From the IMG/VR virus record IMGVR_UViG_3300009285_000028, positions 1 to 40,418 of that record: DNA of 40,418 bases; one strand, written 5' to 3'. A program made the position numbers and the translations under genes. Under the pieces are notes generated by a model, which ran no database searches, was not told the origin of the DNA, and saw only the letters and a program-made list of their open reading frames with translations. This document shows positions 4,160-40,418 of the stretch, piece after piece (position 1 is the first letter of the stretch; every line of letters begins with the position of its first letter). Origin of the DNA: a virus.

Positions 4160-4386
4160 ACCTCGACGCCGCCACGCCGGACCCCGGCAACCTGCTCACC
4201 CCCGCCGAGATGGTGGGCAACGTGACCACCATCCTTTCTAACTACGTCGAGCCCGAGCGAGCCGAGGAGATAGCGCGCCGGGCCGTGGGCATCCTCATCT
4301 CCACCGGCTACGTCGAGGAGTGGGGCCTGACCGAGGGGGGCGACCCGCTCTACGAACCGCACGCCCACATCACGTTCGTCCTTTAG
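4153..4386 (+). CDS. Hypothetical protein, 77 aa
   Basis: ATG 4153 overlaps the upstream stop; acidic, non-repetitive sequence. Confidence 0.55.
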   Translation: MVNLDAATPDPGNLLTPAEMVGNVTTILSNYVEPERAEEIARRAVGILISTGYVEEWGLTEGGDPLYEPHAHITFVL

Positions 4387-4416: not shown

Positions 4417-4447
4417 CACAAGGCCCGTGTACCACAAGGCCCGTGTA
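4417..4447 (+). repeat. Tandem direct repeat 2 x CACAAGGCCCGTGTA (16-nt period) abutting the holin SD
   Basis: 4417-4431 and 4433-4447 are identical. Followed by GTGAGGAGG and ATG 4461. Confidence 0.9.
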
Positions 4448-4460
4448 GTGAGGAGGCAAC

Positions 4461-4646
4461 ATGGATTGGAAGGACATCGTTAGCCGTGCCGGCAAGACGG
4501 CCGTGGAGGTGTTCCTGGCGGCGTTCCCGGTGAGTGCGGTCTTCGCACTTGACATCCCGGCGCTCAAGGCTGCGGCGCTCGCCGCTGGTGCTGCGGCGCT
4601 CGCCATCATCTGGAACGGAGTCCTGGAGTGGAGCCGTACACGCTGA
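4461..4646 (+). CDS. Holin, 61 aa, two hydrophobic helices (resembles r1t-type small holins of Gram-positive phages)
   Basis: Strong SD GAGGAGG 5 nt upstream. N-terminal WKDIVSRAGKTAVEVF followed by two Ala/Leu-rich TM segments and a charged C-terminus. Adjacent to the endolysin block. Confidence 0.7.
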   Translation: MDWKDIVSRAGKTAVEVFLAAFPVSAVFALDIPALKAAALAAGAAALAIIWNGVLEWSRTR

Positions 4647-6351: not shown

Positions 6352-6720
6352 GTGAAGACCGAGATAGCGGGCTCCTACGGCGGCACCCAGATACACCTGC
6401 TCGACATCCACGGTGTCTCGTTCTGCGGCCTGGTCCCACGGCGCCTGCGGCCCGACTACGACGGGCGCACCGAATGGCACGAGATACTGGACTGGGAGCG
6501 GTGTCAGGTCTGCCGGGTCAATGACCCTCGCCCGTGGCCGGTCCATCGCTTTCACAAGGGGGTTCTGCTGCCAGCGCGGGAGGCAGCTCACCGAAGGCGC
6601 GAACGATGGACACGAGGTGTGGGTAAGAAGGCAGCGACGTTCCAAGCGCCCACTTCTCCACCGTTCGGGGATGCACGTAACTATGAGCAGATAGCCGCCA
6701 GGCCGCCTTCGCCTGGCTGA
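6352..6720 (+). CDS. Hypothetical protein; only the first ~65 codons look coding
   Basis: GTG 6352. High GC3 up to about 6550. The remainder overlaps the convergent HTH gene and looks like a shadow frame. Confidence 0.35.
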   Translation: MKTEIAGSYGGTQIHLLDIHGVSFCGLVPRRLRPDYDGRTEWHEILDWERCQVCRVNDPRPWPVHRFHKGVLLPAREAAHRRRERWTRGVGKKAATFQAPTSPPFGDARNYEQIAARPPSPG

Positions 6721-6787
6721 GTCTCTCCCGGCGCAAGAGGCCCCTCCACCACTCTCGAAACTCCGGGTCCTTCACCGTCGTGGGCAT
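6518..6787 (-). CDS. Helix-turn-helix regulator (Cro/CI-like candidate), 89 aa
   Basis: The only convincing minus-strand protein gene. Segment LSQAKAAWRLSAHSYVHPRTVEKWALG reads as an HTH. High GC3 at the 5' end. Start ATG 6787 (MPTTVKD). Confidence 0.6.
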   Translation of the reverse strand: MPTTVKDPEFREWWRGLLRRERLSQAKAAWRLSAHSYVHPRTVEKWALGTSLPSYPHLVSIVRAFGELPPALAAEPPCESDGPATGEGH

Positions 6788-6795
6788 GTAACCGG

Positions 6796-6824
6796 ATTCT
6801 ATCCACACCTGTTACACGGGTCGA
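6796..6824 (-). promoter_or_regulatory. Putative promoter of the HTH gene (-35 TCGACC, 17 nt, -10 TAGAAT), near-leaderless
   Basis: On the minus strand, TAGAAT (6796-6801) ends 8 nt before ATG 6787, and there is no SD. Confidence 0.4.
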
Positions 6825-7017
6825 TATCGTTCCCGCACAACCCCGCGAATCACACTCCTGTCATTCCCTGCACCTGCGACAGGGATGCAACTGCCTGCTA
6901 TGGCGATTAGGTCGGTGGCTCGCGCACGGGGGATGACTCCCGAAGACAACGCCAACCACAACCGATGGTGCTCCGCGCACCCCGCCGAAGAATGTGGGAC
7001 AAAAACGCCCCGCCTGC

Positions 7018-7047
7018 TTGACTTCCCCCGTTCTCGGGGCATAAGGT
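7018..7047 (+). promoter_or_regulatory. Putative early promoter TTGACT-18 nt-TAAGGT with the palindrome CCCCGTTCTCGGGG in the spacer
   Basis: -35 at 7018-7023, -10 at 7042-7047 (TANNNT), ATG 7055 lies 7 nt downstream, which suggests a leaderless mRNA. Confidence 0.55.
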
Positions 7048-7054
7048 TCGTTCC

Positions 7055-7489
7055 ATGGCCGCCGATAACGTGCGAAGTGGGGCTCCGACGGATGAGATTC
7101 CAGCGGTCGGATTCGTTCCCACCCCGGAGACCAACAAGCGTCCGTTCGCCGCGAGGACTGCGAGGAAATCTCCGGGCATTTCCCGGCTCCCCGCAAAGGA
7201 GGGGCGTACCGGCTCTCCATCCGAGCGAGTTGCGCCGGTCGAGGACTCCGCACCGAGACTCGGAAGTGCGGAGGGTGTAGCGGCGAACGGACCCTCCATG
7301 CCACAGGACCCGGAGACCAGCCTCTCCGAAACCCTTGCGCTGCTGCTGAGCATCGACGTAGCAGTGCATGACGTGTACCGGGGCTACATCGGTCCGATGG
7401 CGGCCGTGGACAGGATGAAAGACAACCTGCCCTCGGTCCTGCGGCTCGTGCGCTCGGCGCTGAGCGAGCTAACGGCGGGCGAGCGATGA
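7055..7489 (+). CDS. First early protein, 144 aa
   Basis: ATG at the predicted transcription start. The C-terminal 60 aa are helical and convincing; the N-terminal half is low-complexity (alternative start ATG about 7298). Confidence 0.5.
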   Translation: MAADNVRSGAPTDEIPAVGFVPTPETNKRPFAARTARKSPGISRLPAKEGRTGSPSERVAPVEDSAPRLGSAEGVAANGPSMPQDPETSLSETLALLLSIDVAVHDVYRGYIGPMAAVDRMKDNLPSVLRLVRSALSELTAGER

Positions 7490-14257: not shown

Positions 14258-14523
14258 GCACCGAAGCAGACAACGTGGTTCAGATGCCCGAACGCCCCGA
14301 GCGCACTCAGCTCGTATTCGAGTTGGAGGGCTTCCCGGACCCCACCGGGCTCTACTTCAACCTAGCTAGCGCCAAGAACCTGCCCACGGACAAGACCCTG
14401 GGCTGGGAGCAGCACGTCTCCGGCCGCTTCGAGGGCACGCTGACGGGCACCGAGTTCATGCGCCGCCAGGGAGAGCTGGTGCAGGTGTGGAAGATAACGG
14501 TCCTCGAGGCTACGCTCGACTGA
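14254..14523 (+). CDS. Hypothetical protein, 89 aa
   Basis: ATGA overlap. Confidence 0.6.
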   Translation: MSTEADNVVQMPERPERTQLVFELEGFPDPTGLYFNLASAKNLPTDKTLGWEQHVSGRFEGTLTGTEFMRRQGELVQVWKITVLEATLD

Positions 14524-14849
14524 TGGGCGCGAATGCTATCTCGTGGAAGCGGGTGCAGCGGGTAAATCGCAGGCTGGAGGAGCAGTTCGTGCATGCCTCG
14601 ACATCCTCGCATGGGGAGTGGTGGCGGTGGTTCTGCATCCGACATGACGGCACCGCAGCATCGGTAAACACCCGAACGTGGGAGGTTGAAGAGGAGCCCC
14701 GCCAGGTCACCTCTACACAGCGGCTGCTGCGGGAGCGCCGGCCTACCGCCTACCTGTTGGATGAGACTGATTGGTTGGCCGAACTCGACGAGCGAGCAGC
14801 AACCCTAGTGCCGCTGAATCTCGCCGAAGATGGTGGACCCATTGTCTAG
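14523..14849 (+). CDS. Hypothetical protein, 108 aa
   Basis: TGATG junction; in frame with track ORF 14487..14849. Confidence 0.55.
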   Translation: MGANAISWKRVQRVNRRLEEQFVHASTSSHGEWWRWFCIRHDGTAASVNTRTWEVEEEPRQVTSTQRLLRERRPTAYLLDETDWLAELDERAATLVPLNLAEDGGPIV

Positions 14850-14874
14850 GGGGCGGGGGCGGCTTCGTTGAGTC

Positions 14875-14985
14875 AAGGAGCGGTGGGACTCGAACCCACG
14901 ACCTCCGGGACTCGAGGGTCTCGCACGGGGGCGACCCGCACGGTTGCCCTTGCTCCCGGCGCTCTGCCAACTGAGCTACGCTCCC
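14875..14985 (-). tRNA. tRNA-like gene, 111 nt, with a 38-nt insertion in the anticodon loop (candidate loop CUCGAGU, anticodon CGA)
   Basis: The reverse complement folds as acceptor GGGAGCG/CGCUCCU, D arm GCUC-AGUUGGCA-GAGC, anticodon stem CCGGG/CCCGG, variable AGGUC, T arm GUGGG-UUCGAGU-CCCAC. There are 45 nt instead of 7 between the anticodon-stem halves. Confidence 0.6.
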
Positions 14986-14998
14986 TAGGCTCCCCCCG

Positions 14999-15027
14999 AT
15001 TCTCCTCCCCCTGAACGCTACATGCAA
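14999..15027 (-). promoter_or_regulatory. Putative promoter of the tRNA-like gene: TTGCAT-17 nt-GAGAAT
   Basis: On the minus strand, -35 is at 15022-15027 and -10 at 14999-15004. The -10 ends 13 nt before the tRNA 5' end. Confidence 0.45.
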
Positions 15028-15051
15028 GGGTATGCAACTAGCGACTACCCC

Positions 15052-15080
15052 TTGACATGGGCAGGGCACGGGTTCAGGAT
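15052..15080 (+). promoter_or_regulatory. Possible rightward promoter TTGACA-17 nt-CAGGAT restarting + strand transcription after the tRNA-like gene
   Basis: Perfect -35 hexamer but a weak -10. Followed by CTAGACGAGAGG and the SD of ORF 15116. Confidence 0.35.
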
Positions 15081-15115
15081 GAGGCTCGAAGGACTAGACG
15101 AGAGGAGGCATCGAG

Positions 15116-15271
15116 ATGGCGCGGTACCTGGTCACCTGGAGGCGCCAGGACGGAACCATCGGCACGTCCTGGGAACTGGTCGAGTTGAAGCGCTGCGTGT
15201 CGCTCGAACTCATGGGTTTCTGCTCATGCGACACCCACCGCTGGGCCATAGCGGGTGATGCCTCCGCCTAG
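15116..15271 (+). CDS. Micro-protein, 51 aa
   Basis: SD GAGAGGAGG upstream of ATG 15116; below the track cutoff. Confidence 0.45.
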   Translation: MARYLVTWRRQDGTIGTSWELVELKRCVSLELMGFCSCDTHRWAIAGDASA

Positions 15272-15305
15272 GTTCACGGAAGCCATCTCGAGGGAAGGAG
15301 GAGGG

Positions 15306-15542
15306 ATGAGCGAGCGGATGACCCGGCCGCAATGCGAGGCCGTGCTCGGGCAGGTGAACAACCTCCTGAACCGCGACACGGGGGATGAGGGCGCGTATCT
15401 CATCGAGGGCGTATACGGCGGCCTCGGCCTGTACCGCCGAGCTGGACACGGTTACGCGGAGACGGTCGGCTACCGCATGACCACGCGGGAGATGTACTAC
15501 GTCCTCAAGGGCATGAGGGATGCCCTGGAGTCGGTTCGATGA
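15306..15542 (+). CDS. Hypothetical protein, 78 aa
   Basis: SD GGAAGGAGGAGGG upstream of ATG 15306. Confidence 0.55.
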   Translation: MSERMTRPQCEAVLGQVNNLLNRDTGDEGAYLIEGVYGGLGLYRRAGHGYAETVGYRMTTREMYYVLKGMRDALESVR

Positions 15543-17175: not shown

Positions 17176-17831
17176 GTGGAAGCCTGAGCGCAGTCCTGCA
17201 GGCGAGCAGGAGTCGGCGGGTGGGCCGGTCGGCCACCGAAGAGAGCCAGTATCCCCACGCCACCCCGGCAACGCGAACCGAACCCGCGTTCACCGTGGGC
17301 TTGCACGTCCTGAGGGATCTTGAGGACCATGAGAGGCTGAAGCGTGTAGGGCTCGTGGCCCTCCTTTGTTGAGGGTTCAGGGGTGCGGGGTAGGGGAGAG
17401 CTCGAGTCGAGTGGAGCGTCATCCATCCCTCATCCTGGGTTAGGAGGATGCCACCCGATACGCCACCCCGCCGTCTTGCCCGTGACCGCACCTACCGAGC
17501 GTGAGCCTCGTGCCTAGCTTACCGTAATCACCCTTATGGGCAGGTGTTTGCCCTGCTCAGCGCAGTGATGCGCATGGTGGGTGCTGATACGCACAGTGAG
17601 ATGGGGGCAGTAGCACTACGAACTTGCAGTGCTCTGTCCAACCCACCCCATGCCCCTGCGTACCCCATCTGACCAGGGGGTTTGCACCCGGTCCGTAAAA
17701 AGGAGGGTGTGGTGTTGTGTAGTGTGTCCCGCGTTCGTACGGTGAGAAATCGTTCTGAGTCGGCGTGAAGCGGAAGGAAACGTCGCCTAGCGGTTCGTGC
17801 CTGCGGCCCACTACCGAACCCTTGCTTCCGG

Positions 17832-17877
17832 GGCAGTGCCTTTCCCCCACGGGTCTGTCTGGGGGTCCTGCACTGCC
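17832..17877 (+). other. Extended two-tier hairpin (8 bp + 6 bp) just upstream of motif copy C
   Basis: GGCAGTGC/GCACTGCC pairs outside CCCCCA/TGGGGG, with a 10-nt apical loop and no U-tail. Confidence 0.6.
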
Positions 17878-17890
17878 GCAGTGACGTAGT

Positions 17891-17905
17891 GCGCCCTAGA
17901 CAGGG
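17891..17905 (+). promoter_or_regulatory. Recurrent motif copy C: GCGCCCTAGACAGGG
   Basis: 91 nt upstream of the first late ORF (17996). Confidence 0.5.
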
Positions 17906-17995
17906 GCGGTTTCCTGAGGGCGGGGTCGGTGGAAGACCCTTGTTCGCGTACGTGCGGTCCTCGGGGAAGTGCTGTGGAACGAAAGGGGCTCCGGT

Positions 17996-18103
17996 ATGGG
18001 CAAGAAGAGGGGCGGGGGTAAGCCCATCAAGGGCAAGACCACGAAGAAGCGCACCGGGGAGCGGGTCACGTACCCCAAGGGCCGGCCGCCCAAGCCGAGG
18101 TGA
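17996..18103 (+). CDS. Ultra-basic micro-protein, 35 aa (9 K, 5 R, 7 G; KGRPPKPR AT-hook-like end)
   Basis: 34 of 35 codons end in G/C. Sequence MGKKRGGGKPIKGKTTKKRTGERVTYPKGRPPKPR. Confidence 0.55.
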   Translation: MGKKRGGGKPIKGKTTKKRTGERVTYPKGRPPKPR

Positions 18104-22246: not shown

Positions 22247-25200
22247 ATGCCCATCCTGTTCGAGGGTCCGGTCGAACCGGAGGCACCGGAGGAGCCGAAG
22301 GCCCCTCGTCCGACGGACGTGCCCGCCCCCCGCAGGCGAGGTGAGTTCGCCCCTGCTGTAGCGACCCATACCGCCTCAGCCGCCGAACTGCTGGCGAACG
22401 CCTCCGCCATCCAGGCTCAGCGTGTGGCGTCGGTGTTCGAGGGTGTGAACGATACGGCCCTGTATCAAGTGCCGGACACGCTTGTCTGGACCGGGGTGCA
22501 GGAGAACAGCACCGTGCTCACAGCATCGGTCAACGACGCGGCATCGTTCTTCGCTCGCATCTACGGTGGCGACAACCTCGCGGCCTTCATGACGGCGGAT
22601 GTCTTCGGCGACCCGGTGCAGACCGAGCGCACGATGGCGACGTTGGCCTACCTCCGGGGGTTCGCAACGACCGCCTACGCGCGGGATGGAACACCCATCT
22701 TCCAGGCAGGCGGCTCGGGGTCGCAGGAACGCGGCATGGAACTCCTGCGTCAGGTGCTCGCCAACAGCGGCTCCACCGCCGGACTCACCGAGGCGGAGCG
22801 GGCGCAGGTTGGCACGCTGGCGCAGACGCTCTACACGAACCTACAGACCCTCCCGGACACCGGCACCTCGCTCGCGTTCAAGACGGCGGTTGCGGTGGGA
22901 GCGACCCAGGATGTCACCCTCGCGCTGTCAGCCGATGAGGTGGCCACCCTGGAGCGTTACGTCCAGGCGGAACTCGGTCAACTCGGGGGGCTGCGGCAGA
23001 CCGGGGAGACTCCCACCCTCGCATCGGTGGGCATCGAGCAGGTGCGCCAACTGAACGATGGCGTCATCGTGCTCGACCGGGACTTCGCCAAGGCGAACCC
23101 CGCTGAGGCGTACGCGGTCGAGACATGGCTCCACCAGAACTACCCGGAGCTGGAGATTCAGTACGACCGTCAGGGCGTGGTCGGCTCGCTGCTCGACAAG
23201 TTCGGGATGGGAGTGGACTACCTCACCGCCCCCATCGCGGCCGGGGCCATGCAACTGAAGGAGTTCGGGGAACAACTCTCCAACAGCCCGGAGGACCGGG
23301 CCAGGATGCTCGCACGGGCAGACGAACTCGAGCAACAACTCATGCGTGGCGAGGTCCCCGAAGCGGACGTGGAACGCACGTTGAGCGACATCGCTTTGCT
23401 GCGTGACATAGGAACGGTAGAGGTGGGCTGGCAGCAGTACCAGGACGACGTGTTTCGGGGCACCAATGCGCGCATAGCCGGCTTCGGGTTCGCCGACACC
23501 ATCATGCGCTCGTCCGGCATGATGCCCGGAGACCCAGGGTACGGAGCCACCTACGCCGTCGTGGGCCTACTGTCCAACATCATCGCCGACCCCTTCAACA
23601 TCGGTCTCCTCGGTCTTACGGGCGCGCGTAGCGCACGGCTCATCGCGACGTTGGAGAAGGGTGTCGTCCCCGCCGACGTGGGCAGGGGCATCGTGCGCGC
23701 GACCGCCTATCGAGCACTCGCGAAAACCCCCGAGGAGATGCTCGTCACGCGCCCCATGATGCAAGCGGCCGACCGCCTCTACGAGATGCGCACGGCGCTC
23801 GGACCCGATGAGTTCGCCGGGATGCTCGCAGGCTTCTATCACGATGAGCGCGGCCTGGGCGGCGGAGCGGAGGCTGCGCACCTGCTGTCCCAGGCGACGA
23901 GTTCGGAGGACATGGCGATAGCGATGGTCTCCACCCAGTTCCCGATAGCGGGTGGGGGGTTGCCCATCGAGCCGCTCATGGAGCGCATGAACGAAGCGAC
24001 CAGACTGCTCGACCGGGAGGCCGAACTTCCGGGGCTCATCAATGCATCACAAGACCCGGCACTCGTCCCCGGCCTGCAAGCCGAACTCGATGTCCTTCGG
24101 TCGCAGCACACGGACCTCATCGCGCAACGCGGCCTGTACTCGTCCATCGTCGAAGGTACGGAGTGGGTACGCCCCGTCAGGCAGGTATTCAGCTCGCGCC
24201 AGATACGCAGGTTGGAGCGTCTGACCGGCGAGCGCCTCGATGCGCGGATGCGAGCGTTCGAGGCTGCGACCGCATCTGTCGAGGGCTTGCCTGCGGACGT
24301 GCTCCGTGCCGGGCCGGATGCCATCGCCGCGCACATCGCGGCCAATCCCAACGTGGAAGCGACCACCGCTATCTTGATGCGGCGTGCTCGCAGGGCGTTC
24401 ACCCCCTCGGGTGCCGGTGAGGTGCTGACGTTCCCCCACACCTCGGACCAAGCGGCGGCAGTAGCCAACCTGTTCAAGAAGGGGCGGCTCCTGGCCGACC
24501 ACAGGGAGGAATCGTTCGCCCGCATCCTCGGACTCGGCCGCCGGTTCGGACTGTCGGATTCCCGCGTCGAGGAACTGGTGCGTCCCTGGGTTGCAGGCGA
24601 ACTCACCGGCCCCTCCGCGAGCTATCGGTGGTGGACGAAGACCTGGGAGAGCTTCGTAGACGAGTCCCCGCTCCTTGGGGCGGCGGGCAAGGAGAAGCTC
24701 GCCAAGATGTGGGACACGCCGCTCGAGGGTCGCCCCACGGGGCTCATCGAGACGCGCGGCGCATCGGGGTTCGCCGAGTACGAGCCGGTCTGGTACAAGA
24801 GCGAGGTTGAGCCCGTCACCGGCCTGCTCGAGCGCAAGCCCCTGCCCGACGCCGAGGCGTTCATGTTCCAGACCTGGACCGCCCCGAGCGACGAGGCTAT
24901 CACCGCGTACATCTCGCACGCGCAGCGCACCGTGAACGAATGGCGGAAGACTGGCGGCTGGGGCAAGCGGTCAATCTCGCTCGCGCACCTGCGGCTGGCG
25001 CAACTGTGGAGCGGCTGGAACCACCTGTGGCGCACCGGGGCGCTCATCTTCCGTCCCATCGCGTGGCCCGCCCGCGTCATGGGCGAAGAGATGGTGCGGA
25101 TAGCGACCTTCGGCTACTCCTCGCTCGTGAACAACCCCATCGAATGGTTGCTGTCCACCAAGATGGGGACGCGGCTGTTCAAGAGCACCGACTTCGCGCT

Positions 25201-28200
25201 CATGGGCGAGTCACCAACGCACGCGCTCGGCGGGCTCATGGGCATCATGGAGAACAACCCGAACCTGCGCCTCGCGCAGCTCGGGACTCAGGAGGTCTCT
25301 ATCGCCAGCGGCCCCGCCTTCTGGCGTTCCTACGCGGACACGCTGTCCCGGCAGTACGCCTCGCCCTCGGTGCGTGTTCAGTTGCGATACATGGACCACC
25401 CCGCTTCCGCGCTTGCCGCCATCGAGGCGAGCGACGACGGGGCCTGGTGGCTCGCGCACGTCGCCGAGTCGGACTTCACCCCGCTGGAGGCCATCGCTCG
25501 CAAGCAGGAGCAGTTGCGCCAGCTCCTCGGCTCGGGCGAGGACGCGGACCTAGTTCGCACCGCACTCACTCGTGGTGCAGTCTCGGTAGACGGCGAGGTC
25601 ATCGAGGTCGGCTCTGATGGGTTCGCGGCGTTCCTGGAGAAGCTGGCGAACGAGGGGCGCTGGACGCCGGGCATCTCCACGCTCCCGCGCTCCGCCGGGG
25701 ACTACCTGCCCGTATCGCGCATGAGCGCGGCGACCGAAGTCACGGGGCGTGCGTTCTCGTTCTTCGCCACCGCGCCGGATAACGCGCTGGCCCGCAGCCC
25801 GCTCTGGCGGCAGATGGCCGCACGGGAGTTCCGCGACCTCGTACGGCGCGGCTACAGCAAGGAACGTGCGCTCGAGATGGCCCGCGCCTGGGCTGCCAGG
25901 GGCACCCGCGACACACTGTTCACCATCGGGGCGCGCACCCCCGGTGAGGTGTGGTTGCGCAACGTCAACCCGTTCTTCCCCGCCTACCGCGAGTTGGCCG
26001 ACACCTGGCTCATCCGCGCCGGTCAGCGGCTCGGCAACAGTTCGTGGGCGCTTGGCGTGGGCAAGATGGGGCGGCGTGTCGATGTCTGGATGGACTTCTT
26101 CTCCAACATGGGTCTCATCCGCCGGGATGAGCGGGGCAAGATGTATGTGCCCATCCCCGGCCTGGGCGGCATCATCTCCGCGTTCACCGGAGCCAACGTC
26201 GAGTTCGATTCGAGGGCTCCGGCCGACACGTTCGCGGGCGTGCTGCCGACCCCCATCGGGGTCATGGACAAGGACGAGGAAGGCAACCCGCTGCCCTGGT
26301 ACAAGCGCCTCCAGGGGCTTCTGCCGACGCTCGGCGGTCCCGCTACGTTCGTCCTCGGTGCCATGAACGACCTCTTCGGCGGGGAACTCGACGCCGCCGA
26401 GAACTGGCTGACGCTCTACGGCACGGACGCATCGCAGGGTCCCACGTCCATCGACCGCGCACTCGAGGCGTTCGGGTTCGTCGCTCCGTGGATGACCGCC
26501 ACGACCCGCGAGATGCACGAGGCAACGCGGACCTGGGCCGTGGTCGATGGTATGCGCATCGCCGCCAGCGAGACACCCGCCCCGAGCTACGTGGAGTTCG
26601 ATGCCGACGGCGATGGGGAACTCACCACCGACGAGATGCAAGCCTACGCGGAAGCCGACCGCCAGTGGAAGCTGGACCTGCTGAACCGTGGAGAGCGGTA
26701 CGCGCAGCGGTTCTACCTGCTCCGCTCCGTCATGAGCGCCGTCTTGCCGTTCTCCGTCGCCTCGTCCGATGAGGCCAAGCAGCAGATGAGCGCCGTCTGG
26801 ACGATGCTGAACGCCATCCCCGACAAGGCGGGGGGAGGCGAGTTCAAGTCCGCCCTGCTCGACGCCATCCTGGCCGAGTACCCCCAGTTGGGCGCGTACA
26901 TGACCGGCAAGACCCAGGACTTCCGACCGGGCATCGTGAAGCCCGAGGAGAACCTGGAGGAGTGGATGCAGGCGGTCAAGAACGGGGAGGTCAAGGTCCG
27001 CAACGCTACGGACTGGGCCGTGTTCGCCTCGGGCATGAACAGCTACTCCATCTTCCAGTCGCGCATCGACGCCATCTTCGAGGAGGCCGGCCCGGTCGCG
27101 GCCGATTGGCTGGTCAACTTTGCCGGCAAGGAAGAGGTCGCCCAGGAGAAGGCGAAGTGGCAGGTGTTCCTCGACGCCTCCGAGGTACGGGAGAACTGGC
27201 TGCTGCCCGACCAGACCAAGGGCTTCGCCACGATGCTCGATGACTACTTCGACCTCAAAGCCATCCACGAGGGGGAGGCCACCGACCTCACGCTGGAGCA
27301 GCAGCGGCTCCTTGACCTCACCGGGCTGATGCGGGAGTTCTCGCTGTCGCTCACGCCCAACGAGCCGAGCACGGATGACTACTACAAGCTCCGGGACCAG
27401 GCGTACGCGGCGCTCGGCCCCCCCAAGGGCGAGATAGGCAAGGGCGTGGACTGGTGGTTCTCCACGGTCAACACCCCCTACTACGACGAGCTGCACGCGC
27501 TGGCCGACACGCTCGATGCCACGGAGCCGAGGAACCAGGGTCCCATCTACGCCCAGATGAACGCGGTGCGCAACGCCTACTACCACGGCTGGACCGACCC
27601 CAAGCATCCCGAGTGGGGCGAGTTCGTCTCACCGGAGGAGTATGGCTTCATCGCGCTCACGCCCGAGGAGCGGACGCATCAGGTCGCGGCGTGGGCCAAC
27701 CTGCCGGCCGGGTTCCTCTCGCAGTTCCAGCGGGAGCAGGTCGGCTACGACATCCCCGAGGACAAGCAGGACAAGGCATCGGACTTCGTGGCGATGGTGG
27801 ACCGCGCCAACCGCAAGTTCGAGAAGTACGTGGTGCAGCACGACCTGTCCTACGCCTCGACGGCCATCAAGGATGCGCGTGCGAAGCTCGACGCGGCGTT
27901 CGCCGAAATCGCAGACGAGCGCGGGCTGAGCGCCTTCTGGAAGCAGGCCAACATGGCCGAATACCAGCGGGTGGACCTGGCGCTGAACCTCTCGGAGACA
28001 TCGGCCTCGTGGAAGCACGTTACGCGCCTCGCCACCTCCCTGCGGAACTACATCGAGTCGCAGGATTACGTCCCCGGCGGCTCATCTGCGCTCGCCGAGC
28101 AGGGGCGGACGTGGTTCGTCAACATGGTCACGAAGGTGCGCGGGAACGACGCGGGGTTCGATGACCTGATGAGCGACCTTCAGGTGGCACTGGGAGACAA

Positions 28201-28291
28201 GGGCTCGCCCCTTGCCGACCAAGAGATAGTTGAGACGCTGTTCTTCGACGTATGGAGCACATCAAACTCGTTCTACCTGGACAGGAGGTAA
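22247..28291 (+). CDS. Giant virion-module protein, 2014 aa (internal/ejection protein candidate) with an EF-hand-like loop
   Basis: Uninterrupted 6045-nt ORF with high GC3 throughout. DADGDGELTTDE is encoded at 26600-26635. Confidence 0.85.
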   Translation: MPILFEGPVEPEAPEEPKAPRPTDVPAPRRRGEFAPAVATHTASAAELLANASAIQAQRVASVFEGVNDTALYQVPDTLVWTGVQENSTVLTASVNDAASFFARIYGGDNLAAFMTADVFGDPVQTERTMATLAYLRGFATTAYARDGTPIFQAGGSGSQERGMELLRQVLANSGSTAGLTEAERAQVGTLAQTLYTNLQTLPDTGTSLAFKTAVAVGATQDVTLALSADEVATLERYVQAELGQLGGLRQTGETPTLASVGIEQVRQLNDGVIVLDRDFAKANPAEAYAVETWLHQNYPELEIQYDRQGVVGSLLDKFGMGVDYLTAPIAAGAMQLKEFGEQLSNSPEDRARMLARADELEQQLMRGEVPEADVERTLSDIALLRDIGTVEVGWQQYQDDVFRGTNARIAGFGFADTIMRSSGMMPGDPGYGATYAVVGLLSNIIADPFNIGLLGLTGARSARLIATLEKGVVPADVGRGIVRATAYRALAKTPEEMLVTRPMMQAADRLYEMRTALGPDEFAGMLAGFYHDERGLGGGAEAAHLLSQATSSEDMAIAMVSTQFPIAGGGLPIEPLMERMNEATRLLDREAELPGLINASQDPALVPGLQAELDVLRSQHTDLIAQRGLYSSIVEGTEWVRPVRQVFSSRQIRRLERLTGERLDARMRAFEAATASVEGLPADVLRAGPDAIAAHIAANPNVEATTAILMRRARRAFTPSGAGEVLTFPHTSDQAAAVANLFKKGRLLADHREESFARILGLGRRFGLSDSRVEELVRPWVAGELTGPSASYRWWTKTWESFVDESPLLGAAGKEKLAKMWDTPLEGRPTGLIETRGASGFAEYEPVWYKSEVEPVTGLLERKPLPDAEAFMFQTWTAPSDEAITAYISHAQRTVNEWRKTGGWGKRSISLAHLRLAQLWSGWNHLWRTGALIFRPIAWPARVMGEEMVRIATFGYSSLVNNPIEWLLSTKMGTRLFKSTDFALMGESPTHALGGLMGIMENNPNLRLAQLGTQEVSIASGPAFWRSYADTLSRQYASPSVRVQLRYMDHPASALAAIEASDDGAWWLAHVAESDFTPLEAIARKQEQLRQLLGSGEDADLVRTALTRGAVSVDGEVIEVGSDGFAAFLEKLANEGRWTPGISTLPRSAGDYLPVSRMSAATEVTGRAFSFFATAPDNALARSPLWRQMAAREFRDLVRRGYSKERALEMARAWAARGTRDTLFTIGARTPGEVWLRNVNPFFPAYRELADTWLIRAGQRLGNSSWALGVGKMGRRVDVWMDFFSNMGLIRRDERGKMYVPIPGLGGIISAFTGANVEFDSRAPADTFAGVLPTPIGVMDKDEEGNPLPWYKRLQGLLPTLGGPATFVLGAMNDLFGGELDAAENWLTLYGTDASQGPTSIDRALEAFGFVAPWMTATTREMHEATRTWAVVDGMRIAASETPAPSYVEFDADGDGELTTDEMQAYAEADRQWKLDLLNRGERYAQRFYLLRSVMSAVLPFSVASSDEAKQQMSAVWTMLNAIPDKAGGGEFKSALLDAILAEYPQLGAYMTGKTQDFRPGIVKPEENLEEWMQAVKNGEVKVRNATDWAVFASGMNSYSIFQSRIDAIFEEAGPVAADWLVNFAGKEEVAQEKAKWQVFLDASEVRENWLLPDQTKGFATMLDDYFDLKAIHEGEATDLTLEQQRLLDLTGLMREFSLSLTPNEPSTDDYYKLRDQAYAALGPPKGEIGKGVDWWFSTVNTPYYDELHALADTLDATEPRNQGPIYAQMNAVRNAYYHGWTDPKHPEWGEFVSPEEYGFIALTPEERTHQVAAWANLPAGFLSQFQREQVGYDIPEDKQDKASDFVAMVDRANRKFEKYVVQHDLSYASTAIKDARAKLDAAFAEIADERGLSAFWKQANMAEYQRVDLALNLSETSASWKHVTRLATSLRNYIESQDYVPGGSSALAEQGRTWFVNMVTKVRGNDAGFDDLMSDLQVALGDKGSPLADQEIVETLFFDVWSTSNSFYLDRR

Positions 28292-35872: not shown

Positions 35873-36619
35873 GTGGGGGCTACGGTCGTTCTGCGCAAGT
35901 GTCCGGAGCATGAGTCCTGCCAGCTCGAGCGGCGGGATGACGGCCCCTGGCGGCACACGCCCGCCTCCCGCCCCCTCGTGGAACGCCTCACCCAACGACC
36001 CGAATCTCAAGAGGCCCTTGAGCACCGCCTGGCCGGTGAGGTAAGCGCGGCGAACAAGCTCCGCACCCGGCTCTCGGAGCAGGCGGAGGGGGTCACGCAG
36101 CGCCTCGGCCGGCTGGACGACGTGGTGGCCCTGCTCCCCAAGGTGGAGGCCCGCCATCGGGAGGCCGGGGCCGTGGGGGACCGCCTGGCCGACCTTCAGG
36201 ACGAGACCGAGCTGCTTGCCCTGCGCTTGCGTCATGCGCTCGACCGTGTAGATGCGGTCGAAACGGAACTCAAGCACCGTGTCTCACAGGTCGAACGGGC
36301 GCAGGACCGCAACGTGGAGGTCATCGCCGGGGCCGAGCAGCGAGCCGTCGGTCTCGAGGAGCGCCTGCTGCGGGCAGACGGGTTCCTGCTCCGCGCGGAT
36401 GACCTCGTGGGCAAGCTCAGCCGCCTCGACGACGTGCTCGCGGCCGTGGGGACCAGCGAGAGCCTGCTCCTCGATGAACTAGCTGCGCTTCGCCGTCGTG
36501 TCGATGAGGTCGCGCACGATACCGCGCACGAACGCGCCGAACGCCTACAGGCCACGGCCAAGAGCGTCCGCACGGACCAGATGCTTGCCAAGCGCATCGA
36601 GGAGGTGGGCCGTGGCTGA
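35873..36619 (+). CDS. Long coiled-coil protein, 248 aa (tail/fibre-associated)
   Basis: GTG 35873. Leu/Arg/Glu/Ala heptad-rich throughout. Confidence 0.55.
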   Translation: MGATVVLRKCPEHESCQLERRDDGPWRHTPASRPLVERLTQRPESQEALEHRLAGEVSAANKLRTRLSEQAEGVTQRLGRLDDVVALLPKVEARHREAGAVGDRLADLQDETELLALRLRHALDRVDAVETELKHRVSQVERAQDRNVEVIAGAEQRAVGLEERLLRADGFLLRADDLVGKLSRLDDVLAAVGTSESLLLDELAALRRRVDEVAHDTAHERAERLQATAKSVRTDQMLAKRIEEVGRG

Positions 36620-38357
36620 CCTGCCCTCCAATCAGAGCACGACCTTCACGGCCGGCACGGGCATCCAACTCACCTTCACCGAGACCGAGGGGGCCTACTG
36701 GGACATCGCCGTAGAGTCCACGGCTGGGGGTGCCCCCTCGAACGCCGACTATCTCGTGGGCACGGCCAACGGGTCGCTGTCTGCGGAGATAGTCGTCGGC
36801 TCCACACCCGGCGGCGAACTTGGGGGAACCTGGGCCTCGCCGACAGTGGACACAACCCACGCAGGCGGCACCCACGCAGCGGCGGGCAGCGACCATATCG
36901 CCGATGCCTCTGCTGCCCACGCAGCCTCGGCTGTCTCCGTCGATTCGACGACGCTCGTTGGAACCGGGACGGACCAGCAGGCGGTGGACGAGGAGTTCGA
37001 CAACGCCATCGTCACCGCCCAGGCTGCGGCCGACAACCACATCGCGGACGCAAGTGCCGCCCATGCCGCCTCGGCAGTCTCGGCGGACTCGACCACGTTG
37101 GTCGGTGTCGGCACGGACGTTCAAGCGGTGCTCGAAGAACTCGACAACGGCATCGCCGACCATCTCGCGGACGCTACCGACGCCCACGATGCCTCTGCCA
37201 TCTCCATCCTCGACGCCGCCACCCAGTACACCGCGACTGACGTAGAGGCTGCGTTGGCCGAGGTCCTGGACGCCGAGCAGGCGCACGAAGCCGATGCGGT
37301 CGGTGCCCACGCAGCGACCGCTATCGCCAACACTCCGGCCGGTTCGGTTGCCGCTACGACAGTTCAGGCCGCCATCGACGAACTCGCTACCGACTACGCC
37401 TCCGCCGACTCGACGCACGCGGGCGCAGCGGACCCGCACGCCGACTACCTCAAGGAGTCGGTCTTCACGACCAAGGGCGACATCGTGGCGGCTACCGCTG
37501 CCTCGACGCCCGCCCGCCTTGGGGTCGGCACGGACGGCCAGGTTCTGACCGCCGATGCTGCATCTGCGGGAGGGGTGAAGTGGGCTGCCGGTGGCGGGGG
37601 TGGGGCGGTTGCCACGGATGTCATCTGGGATGCGAAGGGGGACCTTGCCGCAGGAACCGGGGCCGACACGGCTACCAAGCTCACCGTCGGAGCCGACGAC
37701 ACCATCCTCATGGCCGATGCTGCGGTCGCCAACGGCTTGAAGTGGGTTGCCTCCGCCACGCCCTCCACACAGGCGTTCGGTGATGCTGCTGCCGTCGGGA
37801 CGGGTGACACCTTCACGCGCGGCGACCACAAGCACGCGATGATGGCGGACCCGACAACGGCCCACGTCGCTGCAGGGGACCCGCACACTGGCTACGTCTT
37901 GGAGACATGGGAAATCATGGCTCGCAAGGCGGCCGACCAGACGTGGACCTCCGATGCCATCGTGGATGATGTCACCACACTAGGCTTCGCCATCGGCTCG
38001 AACGATGTCTGGGTGTTCGACCTATTGCTGTGGGTTGCCGGTGCGACGACGGGGGACATCCAGATAGGTTTCACCGGACCCGCTGGTGTCACCATCAAGT
38101 GGGGCGCATCAGTCGGAGCTGCTCTCGCGGCAGCCAACACCACCGCATCGTCCGTCTCCTGGGGACAGGAGACCACGGGCACACGGGGATTCGCTACCGC
38201 TGGGGTCGCTACATTCGGGCTTCTGCGCATCGCGGGCATCGCCCGCAACGGTGCGACGGCGGGGACCATCCAGTTGCAAGCGGCACAGGTGGTCTCGGAC
38301 GCCACCGCGACCACCATCCAGGCCGATAGCGTCATCGTCGCCAAGAGGATTGCCTGA
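36612..38357 (+). CDS. Tail fibre / receptor-binding protein, 581 aa
   Basis: GTG 36612 overlaps the upstream stop. Four tandem ~41-48-aa repeats H(I/L)AD..(A/D)AH(A/D)ASA(V/I)S....(T)(D/T)VQA.L.EL, typical of phage fibre repeats. Confidence 0.8.
   Translation: MADLPSNQSTTFTAGTGIQLTFTETEGAYWDIAVESTAGGAPSNADYLVGTANGSLSAEIVVGSTPGGELGGTWASPTVDTTHAGGTHAAAGSDHIADASAAHAASAVSVDSTTLVGTGTDQQAVDEEFDNAIVTAQAAADNHIADASAAHAASAVSADSTTLVGVGTDVQAVLEELDNGIADHLADATDAHDASAISILDAATQYTATDVEAALAEVLDAEQAHEADAVGAHAATAIANTPAGSVAATTVQAAIDELATDYASADSTHAGAADPHADYLKESVFTTKGDIVAATAASTPARLGVGTDGQVLTADAASAGGVKWAAGGGGGAVATDVIWDAKGDLAAGTGADTATKLTVGADDTILMADAAVANGLKWVASATPSTQAFGDAAAVGTGDTFTRGDHKHAMMADPTTAHVAAGDPHTGYVLETWEIMARKAADQTWTSDAIVDDVTTLGFAIGSNDVWVFDLLLWVAGATTGDIQIGFTGPAGVTIKWGASVGAALAAANTTASSVSWGQETTGTRGFATAGVATFGLLRIAGIARNGATAGTIQLQAAQVVSDATATTIQADSVIVAKRIA
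36891..37410 (+). repeat. Intragenic tandem repeats of the tail fibre gene (units start about 36891, 37035, 37158, 37278)
   Basis: Seen at both nucleotide and protein level. Confidence 0.8.
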
Positions 38358-39676: not shown

Positions 39677-40418
39677 GCCTGAGTCAGGCCACACTCGTCC
39701 AGCGTGTCCGGTGGGAACTCGGGGACCGCCCCTGGGAGGATTCCGCCCTCACGGCCGCCTCTGCCTCCTCGACCATCACGGGGGCCACCACGGGCTACTG
39801 GGTGAAGGGAGACATCGGGGAGTTCATCGAGGACGGCGACACGTGGCTGACCATCTCCGAGACCACGGGAACCATCACGGCAACCCGCTCCTACGACGGC
39901 TCCACCGGGGCCGCGCACACCACCAAGCGTGGCCTGAAGAACCCCCGCTATCGGTACAACGAAATCGTCAACGCCATCGAGTCCGTCATCCAGGACCAGC
40001 TCTGGCCGAAGGCCTGGAAGAAGGTGGCCGACACCATCACGCCGCTGTCCACGACGACGTGGTACGACCTCGCTGCCGAGGCGCGGGGCCTCATCAACGT
40101 GCGGCAGCTCTACGGGACCAGCGACGCCAAGGAAGGGCGCTACGGGGGACGCCACAGCGCCTACCCGGTCTGGTTCCGACGCAACATGACCACGAGCCTC
40201 GTCACCTCGGGCGTGGGACTGCGGTTCCCCGGCGGCATGTACCACGCCTCCAACACGGTGAACGTGGACTACGCCGCCAAGATAACGGACACCATCGCCA
40301 CCCCCAACCACTCAGACCTGAGTGACGGCGATGCCGTGGTCGAGGCCATCATCTTCGGGGCGGTCTCCCACCTCGAGGGGGCGCTCGAGAACCGCAAGCC
40401 GCGCAAGCCGCGCCAGGA
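39673..40418 (+). CDS. Virion protein, 288 aa in total, truncated by linearisation (continues as 78..198)
   Basis: ATGA overlap at 39673. The open frame runs to the window end and is in frame with 1..198. Confidence 0.7.
   Translation, partial: MSLSQATLVQRVRWELGDRPWEDSALTAASASSTITGATTGYWVKGDIGEFIEDGDTWLTISETTGTITATRSYDGSTGAAHTTKRGLKNPRYRYNEIVNAIESVIQDQLWPKAWKKVADTITPLSTTTWYDLAAEARGLINVRQLYGTSDAKEGRYGGRHSAYPVWFRRNMTTSLVTSGVGLRFPGGMYHASNTVNVDYAAKITDTIATPNHSDLSDGDAVVEAIIFGAVSHLEGALENRKPRKPRQ
40342..40418. repeat. Second copy of the 77-nt terminal repeat
   Basis: Identical to nt 1-77. Confidence 0.95.

Follow-up and report, generated by a model that had tools for sequence, protein, structure and literature searches.

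The DNA analysed here is the record IMGVR_UViG_3300009285_000028 of IMG/VR, positions 1 to 40,418 (this whole stretch of 40,418 nucleotides (nt) is called the window below), which comes from a groundwater metagenome and has a G+C content of 66%. On its minus strand, at positions 14875-14985, lies a 111-nt tRNA-like gene that has a complete tRNA body, lacks an anticodon loop, carrying 45 nt in its place, and is situated in a promoter-containing gap between genes. As a tentative first choice among several readings, we suggest that the locus is a tRNA-derived gene for a non-decoding tRNA-like small RNA, either a mimic or a scaffold. This reading is favoured because the body is flawless while the decoding region is not tRNA-like.

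Read along the minus strand, the gene consists of GGGAGCG UA GCUC AGUUGGCA GAGC G CCGGG, the 45-nt segment, and CCCGG AGGUC GUGGG UUCGAGU CCCAC CGCUCCU U. It was matched end to end by the Rfam tRNA family RF00005 (model positions 1-71) with 54.0 bits and E = 5e-9 for the whole window, the gathering score being 29 bits, and the alignment places 45 nt at the anticodon loop where the model expects 7. Even with the penalty for this loop included, the score is within the 36-66 bits obtained for ordinary phage tRNAs in the comparison locus L032. RF00005 was the sole Rfam family matched over the 40-kb window; when the local 700 nt were searched with lax filters up to E = 10 nothing beyond tRNA was found, and the plus strand of the element had no Rfam match. 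The sequence is identical in a second, separate assembly of that sequencing run held by ENA, with 0 mismatches across 21.9 kb.

The 5' strand of the acceptor stem (GGGAGCG, 14979-14985) pairs with 14876-14882 (CGCUCCU), as is also drawn by ARAGORN; its top pair is a G1-U72 wobble, and A 14986 could pair with U 14875 to give an eighth pair. The D arm, GCUC AGUUGGCA GAGC (14961-14976), has A14, G18, G19 and A21 in the Rfam alignment. The 5' strand of the anticodon stem (CCGGG, 14955-14959) pairs with 14905-14909 (CCCGG) in both the alignment and the predicted fold, and the block at 14883-14904 is aligned as the variable loop AGGUC (14900-14904) and the T arm GUGGG UUCGAGU CCCAC (14883-14899). 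All 21 of 21 stem pairs are intact (20 Watson-Crick pairs and G1-U72), and the conserved tertiary bases are kept without exception, namely U8, A14, G15:C48, G18, G19, A21 and G53-U54-U55-C56-G57-A58. The variable loop has 5 nt, position 73 is U, and CCA is not encoded. The locus thus has the cloverleaf body of a canonical tRNA, with a GUUCRANYC T loop and the tertiary bases, and does not encode a 7-nt loop (Y32 U33 NNN R37) on a 5-bp stem. These results bear out the anatomy given in a preliminary description of this DNA, made from its sequence before any search was run, which listed the three arms (acceptor, D and T), a variable loop of 5 nt, 45 nt enclosed by a stem of 5 bp, and the missing CCA, and which proposed Infernal and Rfam searches as a check; the tRNA was matched, and no match to transfer-messenger RNA (tmRNA) or Y RNA was found.

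In the minimum free energy (MFE), centroid and arm-only folds, the 45 nt that replace the anticodon loop (14910-14954, minus strand) prolong the anticodon stem by way of small internal loops. From the stem outward, the MFE and centroid folds predict an A32-U76 pair, a 1x2 internal loop, a C34-G73 pair, a 1x1 internal loop, a helix of 4-5 bp, a 3x1 internal loop and an 8-bp helix (14935-14942 with 14922-14929, two of the pairs being G-U), capped by the 5-nt tip UCGCC (14930-14934). Together with the anticodon stem, the segment is predicted to form an irregular rod of about 20 bp. The two G-U pairs were considered as a marker of the functional RNA strand and dropped, as the arm refolds just as stably on the plus strand. 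A repeated palindromic element of the MITE or REP kind was likewise discarded, the hairpin sequence occurring once in the genome.

If a 7-nt loop is assembled by splitting it across an insert, U33 is obtained in 2 of the 8 possible splits (31/32 and 32/33), both with the anticodon CGA, and the 37/38 split, which corresponds to the canonical intron site, gives G33. By our own estimate, one acceptable loop with U33 and R37 among eight splits is roughly what chance would provide. The preliminary description had picked out the 7-mer CUCGAGU as an anticodon loop with U33 and a purine at 37, with the insert at 31/32; the parse does exist formally, but it is one parse, at about the level of chance, and the seven bases are mostly paired within the rod in the MFE fold. 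An anticodon CGA, which would read serine codons, conflicts with the 5-nt variable loop and with U73, and no split of the 45 nt gives a loop that is consistent with the body, the U33 parse placing a Ser anticodon on a class I body. The same conflict had been pointed out before the searches; it is valid, it counts against decoding, and judged from the sequence, decoding as tRNA-Ser is implausible.

A second reading is that bacteria or phages splice short tRNA introns outside group I by an undescribed pathway. Under it the gene would be a decoding tRNA from which 38 nt (14917-14954) are removed, for example by cutting both strands of the long arm and joining the ends in an RtcB-type ligation, to leave a tRNA of 73-75 nt with the anticodon CGA, which we regard as improbable. 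ARAGORN in its default mode reported no tRNA; with introns allowed (-i) it returned the parse that the preliminary description had proposed, a tRNA-Ser(cga) at c[14874,14986] in which the acceptor stem has 8 bp (A-1:U73), an intron of 38 nt lies at 32/33 and the loop reads C-U-CGA-G-U. As the same run also gave a spurious tRNA-Gly with a 1016-nt intron, the intron mode by itself is weak evidence. The intron reading is further helped by the unexplained short introns reported in tRNAs of the Lak megaphages (10.1101/356790), and by a family of phage tRNAs in IMG/VR, described below, in which a conserved insert of 40-47 nt stands beside an intact loop and which indicates that intron-like elements do exist in phage tRNAs.

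Set against these points, a long variable arm and G73 are features of tRNA-Ser in bacteria, whereas the body has a 5-nt variable loop and U73, and a loop with U33 and R37 would by our estimate arise by chance in most such inserts. The bulge-helix-bulge motif of 3-nt bulge, 4-bp helix and 3-nt bulge was not found anchored at the anticodon stem (27-33/75-81), while the same search did find one in an archaeal control (L023). Actinobacteria are not known to possess a tRNA splicing endonuclease, and neither an RNA ligase nor an endonuclease could be recognised among the phage proteins. A group I intron, which the preliminary description had held to be excluded by length, was rejected on the same ground, the insert measuring 38-45 nt as opposed to a core of about 200 nt or more (P1-P9), and neither a group I intron nor any other ribozyme family was matched in Rfam at E <= 10. 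Finally, the insert has neither the invariant ACAGCAA motif nor the insertion position of the IMG/VR family.

The combination of a pristine body and an absent loop fits selection for the shape of a tRNA without decoding. We infer that the RNA would be transcribed, processed and stable, and that it may have a binding partner. In such a scheme, minus-strand transcription by host RNA polymerase would start in the region of divergent promoters (14990-15080), and the acceptor, D and T arms of the transcript would form the tRNA elbow. RNase P would cleave at G1, and the 3' trailer would be trimmed. Because no CCA is encoded, CCA would be added by the nucleotidyltransferase of the host, leaving a stable RNA of about 111-114 nt. 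With an irregular hairpin of about 20 bp at the position of the loop, this RNA would read no codon and would offer no anticodon loop to be cut. It would likely serve to bind proteins that recognise the tRNA body, or to present the hairpin on a chassis that resists nucleases, for example as a Y RNA-like adaptor, or as a sponge or decoy for a toxin or defence enzyme with which the host attacks tRNA. Any specific decoy role is a guess, and that the locus encodes a natural tRNA-scaffolded RNA which decoys or inhibits a defence system or toxin of the host directed at tRNA (of the VapC, MazF, MenT, PrrC or PARIS kind), or some other hairpin-binding host factor, seems to us rather unlikely.

Among the three readings that the preliminary description had offered, the data favour, short of proof, a mimic, decoy or scaffold over an intron-like tRNA. 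The choice is supported by the lack of a known splicing signal, by the position in a non-coding gap beside a strong plus-strand promoter, and by similar designs in 21 of 69 long tRNA-like genes collected from IMG/VR. Precedents are YrlA and the engineered tRNA scaffold, both described below, the latter showing that large RNAs can be inserted into the anticodon arm of a tRNA. If expressed, the element would be a clean natural case of a full, unpermuted tRNA body serving as a carrier for another RNA structure. Toxins and defence nucleases that target tRNA are abundant in Actinobacteria, and phages are known to answer them with variant tRNAs; if the element were a true decoy, a look-alike that can be neither decoded nor cleaved would represent a different counter-strategy and a new RNA-based class of anti-defence in actinophages.

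Several observations weigh against a functional RNA. The minus-strand promoter with which the preliminary description had equipped the gene, TTGCAT-17-GAGAAT at 14999-15027, is a weak candidate that agrees with the consensus at 7 of 12 positions (3/6 and 4/6); it was not recovered in a consensus scan, which reported no promoter in 14400-15500 and no terminator at the element, and matches as good as this one number 50 in the genome, about one per 1.6 kb of strand, so that the site is a possible promoter whose strength had been overstated. There is no U-tract at the element as a sign of a terminator. The gene is antisense to every other gene and could be a passenger acquired in reverse. As a partner protein encoded by the phage, Pfam and PHROGs revealed neither a Ro/TROVE protein nor an RNA ligase or nuclease. 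When shuffled with the closing stem held fixed, 66 of 500 sequences folded at least as well as the rod (z = -1.2), and the arm folds equally on the plus strand (-30.6 kcal/mol, compared with -29.0 on the minus strand); selection on the hairpin itself can therefore not be claimed. The best candidate for a trans target within the genome is a complementarity of 13 nt to 4336-4348, inside a coding region, which is equalled by 4.5% of shuffles and by 13% of random genomic 45-mers, and a trans-acting antisense RNA was rejected as the match is within chance. The main limit on all conclusions is that the element, body and hairpin alike, is represented by a single sequence.

Part of this evidence would also be expected of a disabled tRNA, in which a GC-rich palindromic stretch has replaced or interrupted the loop through illegitimate recombination or a small insertion, and which would be a young pseudogene that has not yet decayed. 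This had been named in the preliminary description merely as a possible refutation. We consider it unlikely, less so than the other alternatives, and it remains a substantial one. It is consistent with an orphan that has no homologue in the collections searched, with the orientation opposite to the other genes, with the weak promoter and the missing terminator, and with an insert whose fold resembles that of random GC-rich sequence and which folds on both strands like a DNA palindrome. In addition, the discriminator U73 and the top pair G1-U72 set the element apart from the phage tRNAs closest to it, in which position 73 is A and CCA is often encoded. It is harder to reconcile with 21 of 21 stem pairs and conserved tertiary bases that show no mismatch. 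Moreover, no isotype-consistent 7-nt loop is recoverable, which implies more than one change in the loop region and none in the body, and compact 40-kb lytic phages seldom retain dead DNA. Were the element merely a disabled tRNA, it would be of little importance.

The surroundings of the gene bear on a further alternative. The element had been described as lying inside a long plus-strand operon, which did not hold up: it occupies a 266-nt gap between two called genes at 14523-14849 and 15116-15271, and codon-position GC signal is absent from this gap. The upstream gene (14523-14849, plus strand, 108 aa) has no assigned function; it converges with the tRNA-like gene, and 25 nt separate its stop codon from the 3' end of the latter. 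One distant homologue of its protein was found, in a different context. The downstream gene (15116-15271, plus strand, 51 aa), likewise without an assigned function, is the first after the gap. A plus-strand promoter-like site, TTGACA-17-CAGGAT at 15052-15080, precedes the ribosome-binding site GAGAGGAGG and the ATG at 15116 of this gene, and is directed away from the tRNA-like gene, back to back with it. Sites of the form TTGAC[AT]-N16-18-NANNNT occur twice on the plus strand of the 40.3-kb genome, both times between genes (15052-15080 and 7018-7047); the second reads TTGACU-N-UAAGGU and lies in the intergenic gap 6720-7055. From the gap and the plus-strand promoter it follows that the element is located at a boundary of transcription units and is not buried in one operon, being convergent with the upstream unit and divergent from the promoter of the downstream one.

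Placed exactly between the upstream stop (14849) and the promoter at 15052, the element might instead act as DNA or on the plus strand, as a terminator, attenuator or processing site of the upstream unit, or it might be a tRNA-derived relic of recombination or attachment, which we hold to be about as improbable as the intron. The fold of the whole element is as strong on the plus strand (-55.1 kcal/mol) as on the minus strand (-53.8 kcal/mol), and tRNA genes commonly serve as attachment sites of phages; in the IMG/VR material, L005, L010 and L201 are junctions with partial tRNAs of the attachment-site kind. A terminator, however, need not keep asymmetric tRNA signatures such as the GUUCGAGUC T loop and the AGUUGGCA D loop in antisense, the plus strand is unmatched in Rfam, and the U-tract is missing. 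In agreement with the preliminary description, no integrase was found by Pfam or PHROGs among about 35 open reading frames (ORFs) that span nearly the whole genome. The genome is a complete circle with its genes on one strand, and attachment sites normally hold the 3' part of a tRNA and not both halves. A role as attP or with an integrase is thus unlikely, and a replication origin at the element was rejected as there is no turning point of the GC skew.

Neither a second copy of the element nor a contig of a close relative that spans the corresponding region was retrieved. In IMG/VR, the exact 5' half of the element had no match, and the exact 3' end and degenerate patterns for long tRNAs gave no homologue of the insert, while a specific pattern run on the JGI metagenomes gave only archaeal tRNA-Met with the canonical intron. 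By blastn, the region was unmatched in 50,697 phage records, the element yielding generic half-tRNA matches only, and no relative of the genome was found among cultured phages. In all, no related copy of the element was found in INPHARED, IMG/VR or the JGI metagenomes, and the same phage was seen in one sample only. The terminase has 120 homologues; the nearest long contigs among these relatives start about 1.5 kb upstream of the terminase, apparently at a genome end, so that the region equivalent to the element is missing from them, and no tRNA is present on them. More distant terminase relatives have a different early region, one of them with an ordinary 81-nt tRNA-Tyr-like gene. Queries with the WhiB-like protein and the exonuclease gave no relevant syntenic relative, and the neighbouring protein of family PF27050 had no close relative.

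Genomic tRNAs that have the anticodon stem and T loop of the element are nearly all tRNA-His of Actinomycetota (46 of 49), and acceptor and T arms in common with the element are found in phage tRNA-Lys(UUU) genes. Phage tRNA-Lys(UUU), the Ile-like tRNA of a Vibrio phage and tRNA-His of actinobacteria all show about 83% identity to the body, and the exact match of its acceptor stem to one tRNA-Lys from IMG/VR (L160) is about what chance would give among 282 tRNA sites. With all candidates at the same identity and the acceptor match near chance, assignment of any isotype was rejected.

Non-coding RNAs that resemble tRNA have been known before, and so have unexplained inserts in phage tRNAs; what is new here is a complete, unpermuted cloverleaf whose loop has been replaced, standing alone in a small lytic actinophage, an architecture for which literature searches turned up no account in actinophages. 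Short introns of phage tRNAs that lack an explanation were found explicitly reported once, for the Lak megaphages, in which phage tRNAs with "enigmatic introns" were described (Devoto et al. 2018/2019, 10.1101/356790). Like those genes, the element is a phage tRNA gene lengthened by a short insert in the anticodon region that belongs to no known intron class, it has no known splicing mechanism, and bacterial tRNA finders detect it only when introns are allowed. In the Lak phages, with genomes above 500 kb, the introns occur within large tRNA arrays, are conserved across genomes, and leave isotype-consistent tRNAs on removal, whereas the element is a single antisense copy in a 40-kb actinophage and would be left with a Ser anticodon on a non-Ser body.

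A second relative by design is YrlA of Mycobacterium smegmatis, a tRNA-like RNA that is cleaved by RNase P and gains CCA (Chen et al. 2014, PMC4201824), and in which GNCGAAN0-1G is the likely contact of Ro60 (PMC4201824). YrlA is non-decoding, belongs to a family found in Actinobacteria and their phages, and, like the element, combines the acceptor stem, D arm and T arm of a tRNA-like fold with a long helix that is not of tRNA type. It is, however, circularly permuted, ending in the "anticodon" helix and having a loop-capped acceptor stem, it carries the GNCGAAN0-1G motif, and it is encoded next to rsr. The element has the normal tRNA order, gave no match to the YrlA family RF02553 at E <= 10 and lacks the motif anywhere in its 111 nt, and no TROVE (Ro60/Rsr) gene was recognised among the ORFs scanned or the precomputed Pfam calls; YrlA or another Y RNA was accordingly rejected as an identity. 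As an observation of its own, the Microbacterium phage BAjuniper has two tandem, unannotated modules of the permuted tRNA-like kind (OQ938582.1 41286-41423, which is L034 1430-1567, and also L034 1338-1427), each made of a T arm, a capped 7-bp acceptor stem and a D arm, which match the tRNA-like core of YrlA with 36-37 bits, the threshold being 69, and which adjoin a 90-nt gene annotated as tRNA-Pro(agg) that has no normal D arm.

The tRNA-like domain of tmRNA also has an acceptor stem and a T arm, with a long helix that replaces the anticodon arm. In tmRNA the D arm is reduced, G3-U70 is the alanine identity pair, and pseudoknots and a reading frame for the tag are present; the element has a full D arm, a G3-C70 pair and no reading frame, and as neither ARAGORN nor Rfam called a tmRNA, this identity was rejected too. 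Phages are known to make other small tRNA-like RNAs that are matured by the tRNA enzymes of the host and act as RNAs, among them two regulatory RNAs processed by RNase P, the C4 RNA of P1 and P7 and the CI RNA of P4, and the stable RNA species 1 and 2 of T4. These RNAs are only loosely tRNA-like, and antisense targets are known for C4 and CI, whereas the element has a complete cloverleaf and no significant complementarity to a target was found. The closest parallel in architecture is the "tRNA scaffold" engineered by Ponchon and Dardel, in which a foreign structured RNA takes the place of the anticodon loop and which is reportedly processed correctly and highly stable in Escherichia coli. An intact body with a replaced loop is common to both; the scaffold is a laboratory construct, and use of the same principle by a phage is suggested here by analogy.

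Long genes of the tRNA-like kind are not uncommon on phage contigs: pattern scans of IMG/VR returned 69 unique cases in which the D arm and the variable loop are 40-70 nt apart. Of these, 21 resemble the element in having an intact body whose anticodon loop is replaced by one closed hairpin, for example L015 (GC 0.69), L008/L013, L014 and L009, the first three of these examples being of high GC. At least 25 distinct phage tRNA genes among the others, on contigs of 40-230 kb with a GC of 0.33-0.52, have a conserved insert of 40-47 nt (loci L003, L016, L086 with 15 identical copies, L087, L089, L100, L108, L109, L112, L114, L119, L121, L124, L129, L088, L136, L130, L135, L146, L154, L160, L162, L170 and L173). 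The insertion site is behind position 28, within the 5' half of the anticodon stem (GAGC-R-CG^UA...). The insert has a hairpin, in which compensatory changes are seen, and behind it an ACAGCAA that does not vary; a normal 7-nt anticodon loop comes next (GUU, UUU, GGU and others). Going by their sequences, these inserts look like an undescribed family of intron-like elements of phage tRNAs. The element of the window resembles them in being enlarged by about 40-47 nt in the anticodon arm, and L160 has the same acceptor stem and T arm, the identity in the acceptor stem being at about the level of chance. It differs in the site of the insert and in the absence of a covarying hairpin, of ACAGCAA and of a normal 7-nt loop, and since in the alignment it is gapped opposite ACAGCAA and has no intact loop, its membership in this family was rejected. 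For the study of introns in phage tRNAs, the family may offer the easier starting point. The element itself adds to the scattered evidence, from the Lak megaphages and dozens of IMG/VR cases, for short unexplained inserts in phage tRNAs, and if any such insert is removed, an undescribed route of tRNA splicing would exist in bacteria.

Three further groups of genes were noticed in these scans. A near-identical 101-nt tRNA-like gene is found in at least 10 prophage contigs with a GC of about 0.6, several of them from isolate genomes (L091, L094, L099, L107, L125, L139, L141, L153, L159 and L169); it runs GUCUAGG...GAGC-A-GCGAGCGC[C/U/G]AGCGGUCAUGAACGC[G/A]AACGCUCAUCCAAUGC-AGGUC... and has a 42-nt centre with no clear anticodon arm. 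L166, L098 and L161 (GC 0.66-0.67) have a common acceptor stem and T arm (GCGCG.../CCGGGUUCGAAUCCCGG UCGCGCA) around unrelated centres of 40-56 nt, which looks like a conserved chassis with a variable middle. A third group (L184-L187, L196, L199, L209, L213 and L221) comprises phage tRNA(UAA) genes that have the 3' end of the element (GUGGGUUCGAGUCCCACCGCUCCU, with G1-U72) and inserts of about 200 nt between U34 and A35, which is the classic site of the group I intron of tRNA-Leu(UAA).

As for the phage itself, positions 1-77 of the window are identical to 40342-40418, so that the window is a circular assembly of a complete genome of 40,341 bp. A large terminase, an exonuclease, a capsid protein, an MT-A70 methylase and a WhiB-like protein were recognised, and for almost all remaining proteins neither Pfam nor PHROGs gave a match. 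The convincing genes all lie on the plus strand, opposite to the tRNA-like element. The host is taken to be actinobacterial because of the WhiB gene and because tRNAs with the same anticodon stem and T loop occur almost only in Actinomycetota, and the genome is that of a novel, probably lytic actinophage.

Several minor features of the genome were also observed. A 15-nt direct repeat, CACAAGGCCCGUGUA, occurs twice at a distance of 16 nt (4417-4431 and 4433-4447) just upstream of a ribosome-binding site and the ATG at 4461; lying before the first gene past the structural block, it may be an operator or another regulatory site. Almost no coding signal is present in a gap of about 730 nt (17373-18100) upstream of the terminase. 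The contigs of four related phages (L024-L027) start 1.4-2.7 kb upstream of their terminase, which suggests that the physical ends of the genome, that is, a cos or pac region, are located near 17373-18100. After the terminase and proteins of 572 and 132 aa, a protein of 2014 aa without Pfam or PHROG match is encoded at 22247-28291, and this arrangement is kept in size and position in all terminase relatives (2027-2781 aa, L024-L031). Lastly, imperfect repeats with a period of 123-144 nt were found at 36887-37328 within a 619-aa ORF (36498-38357), the product of which is likely a repetitive tail or fibre protein.

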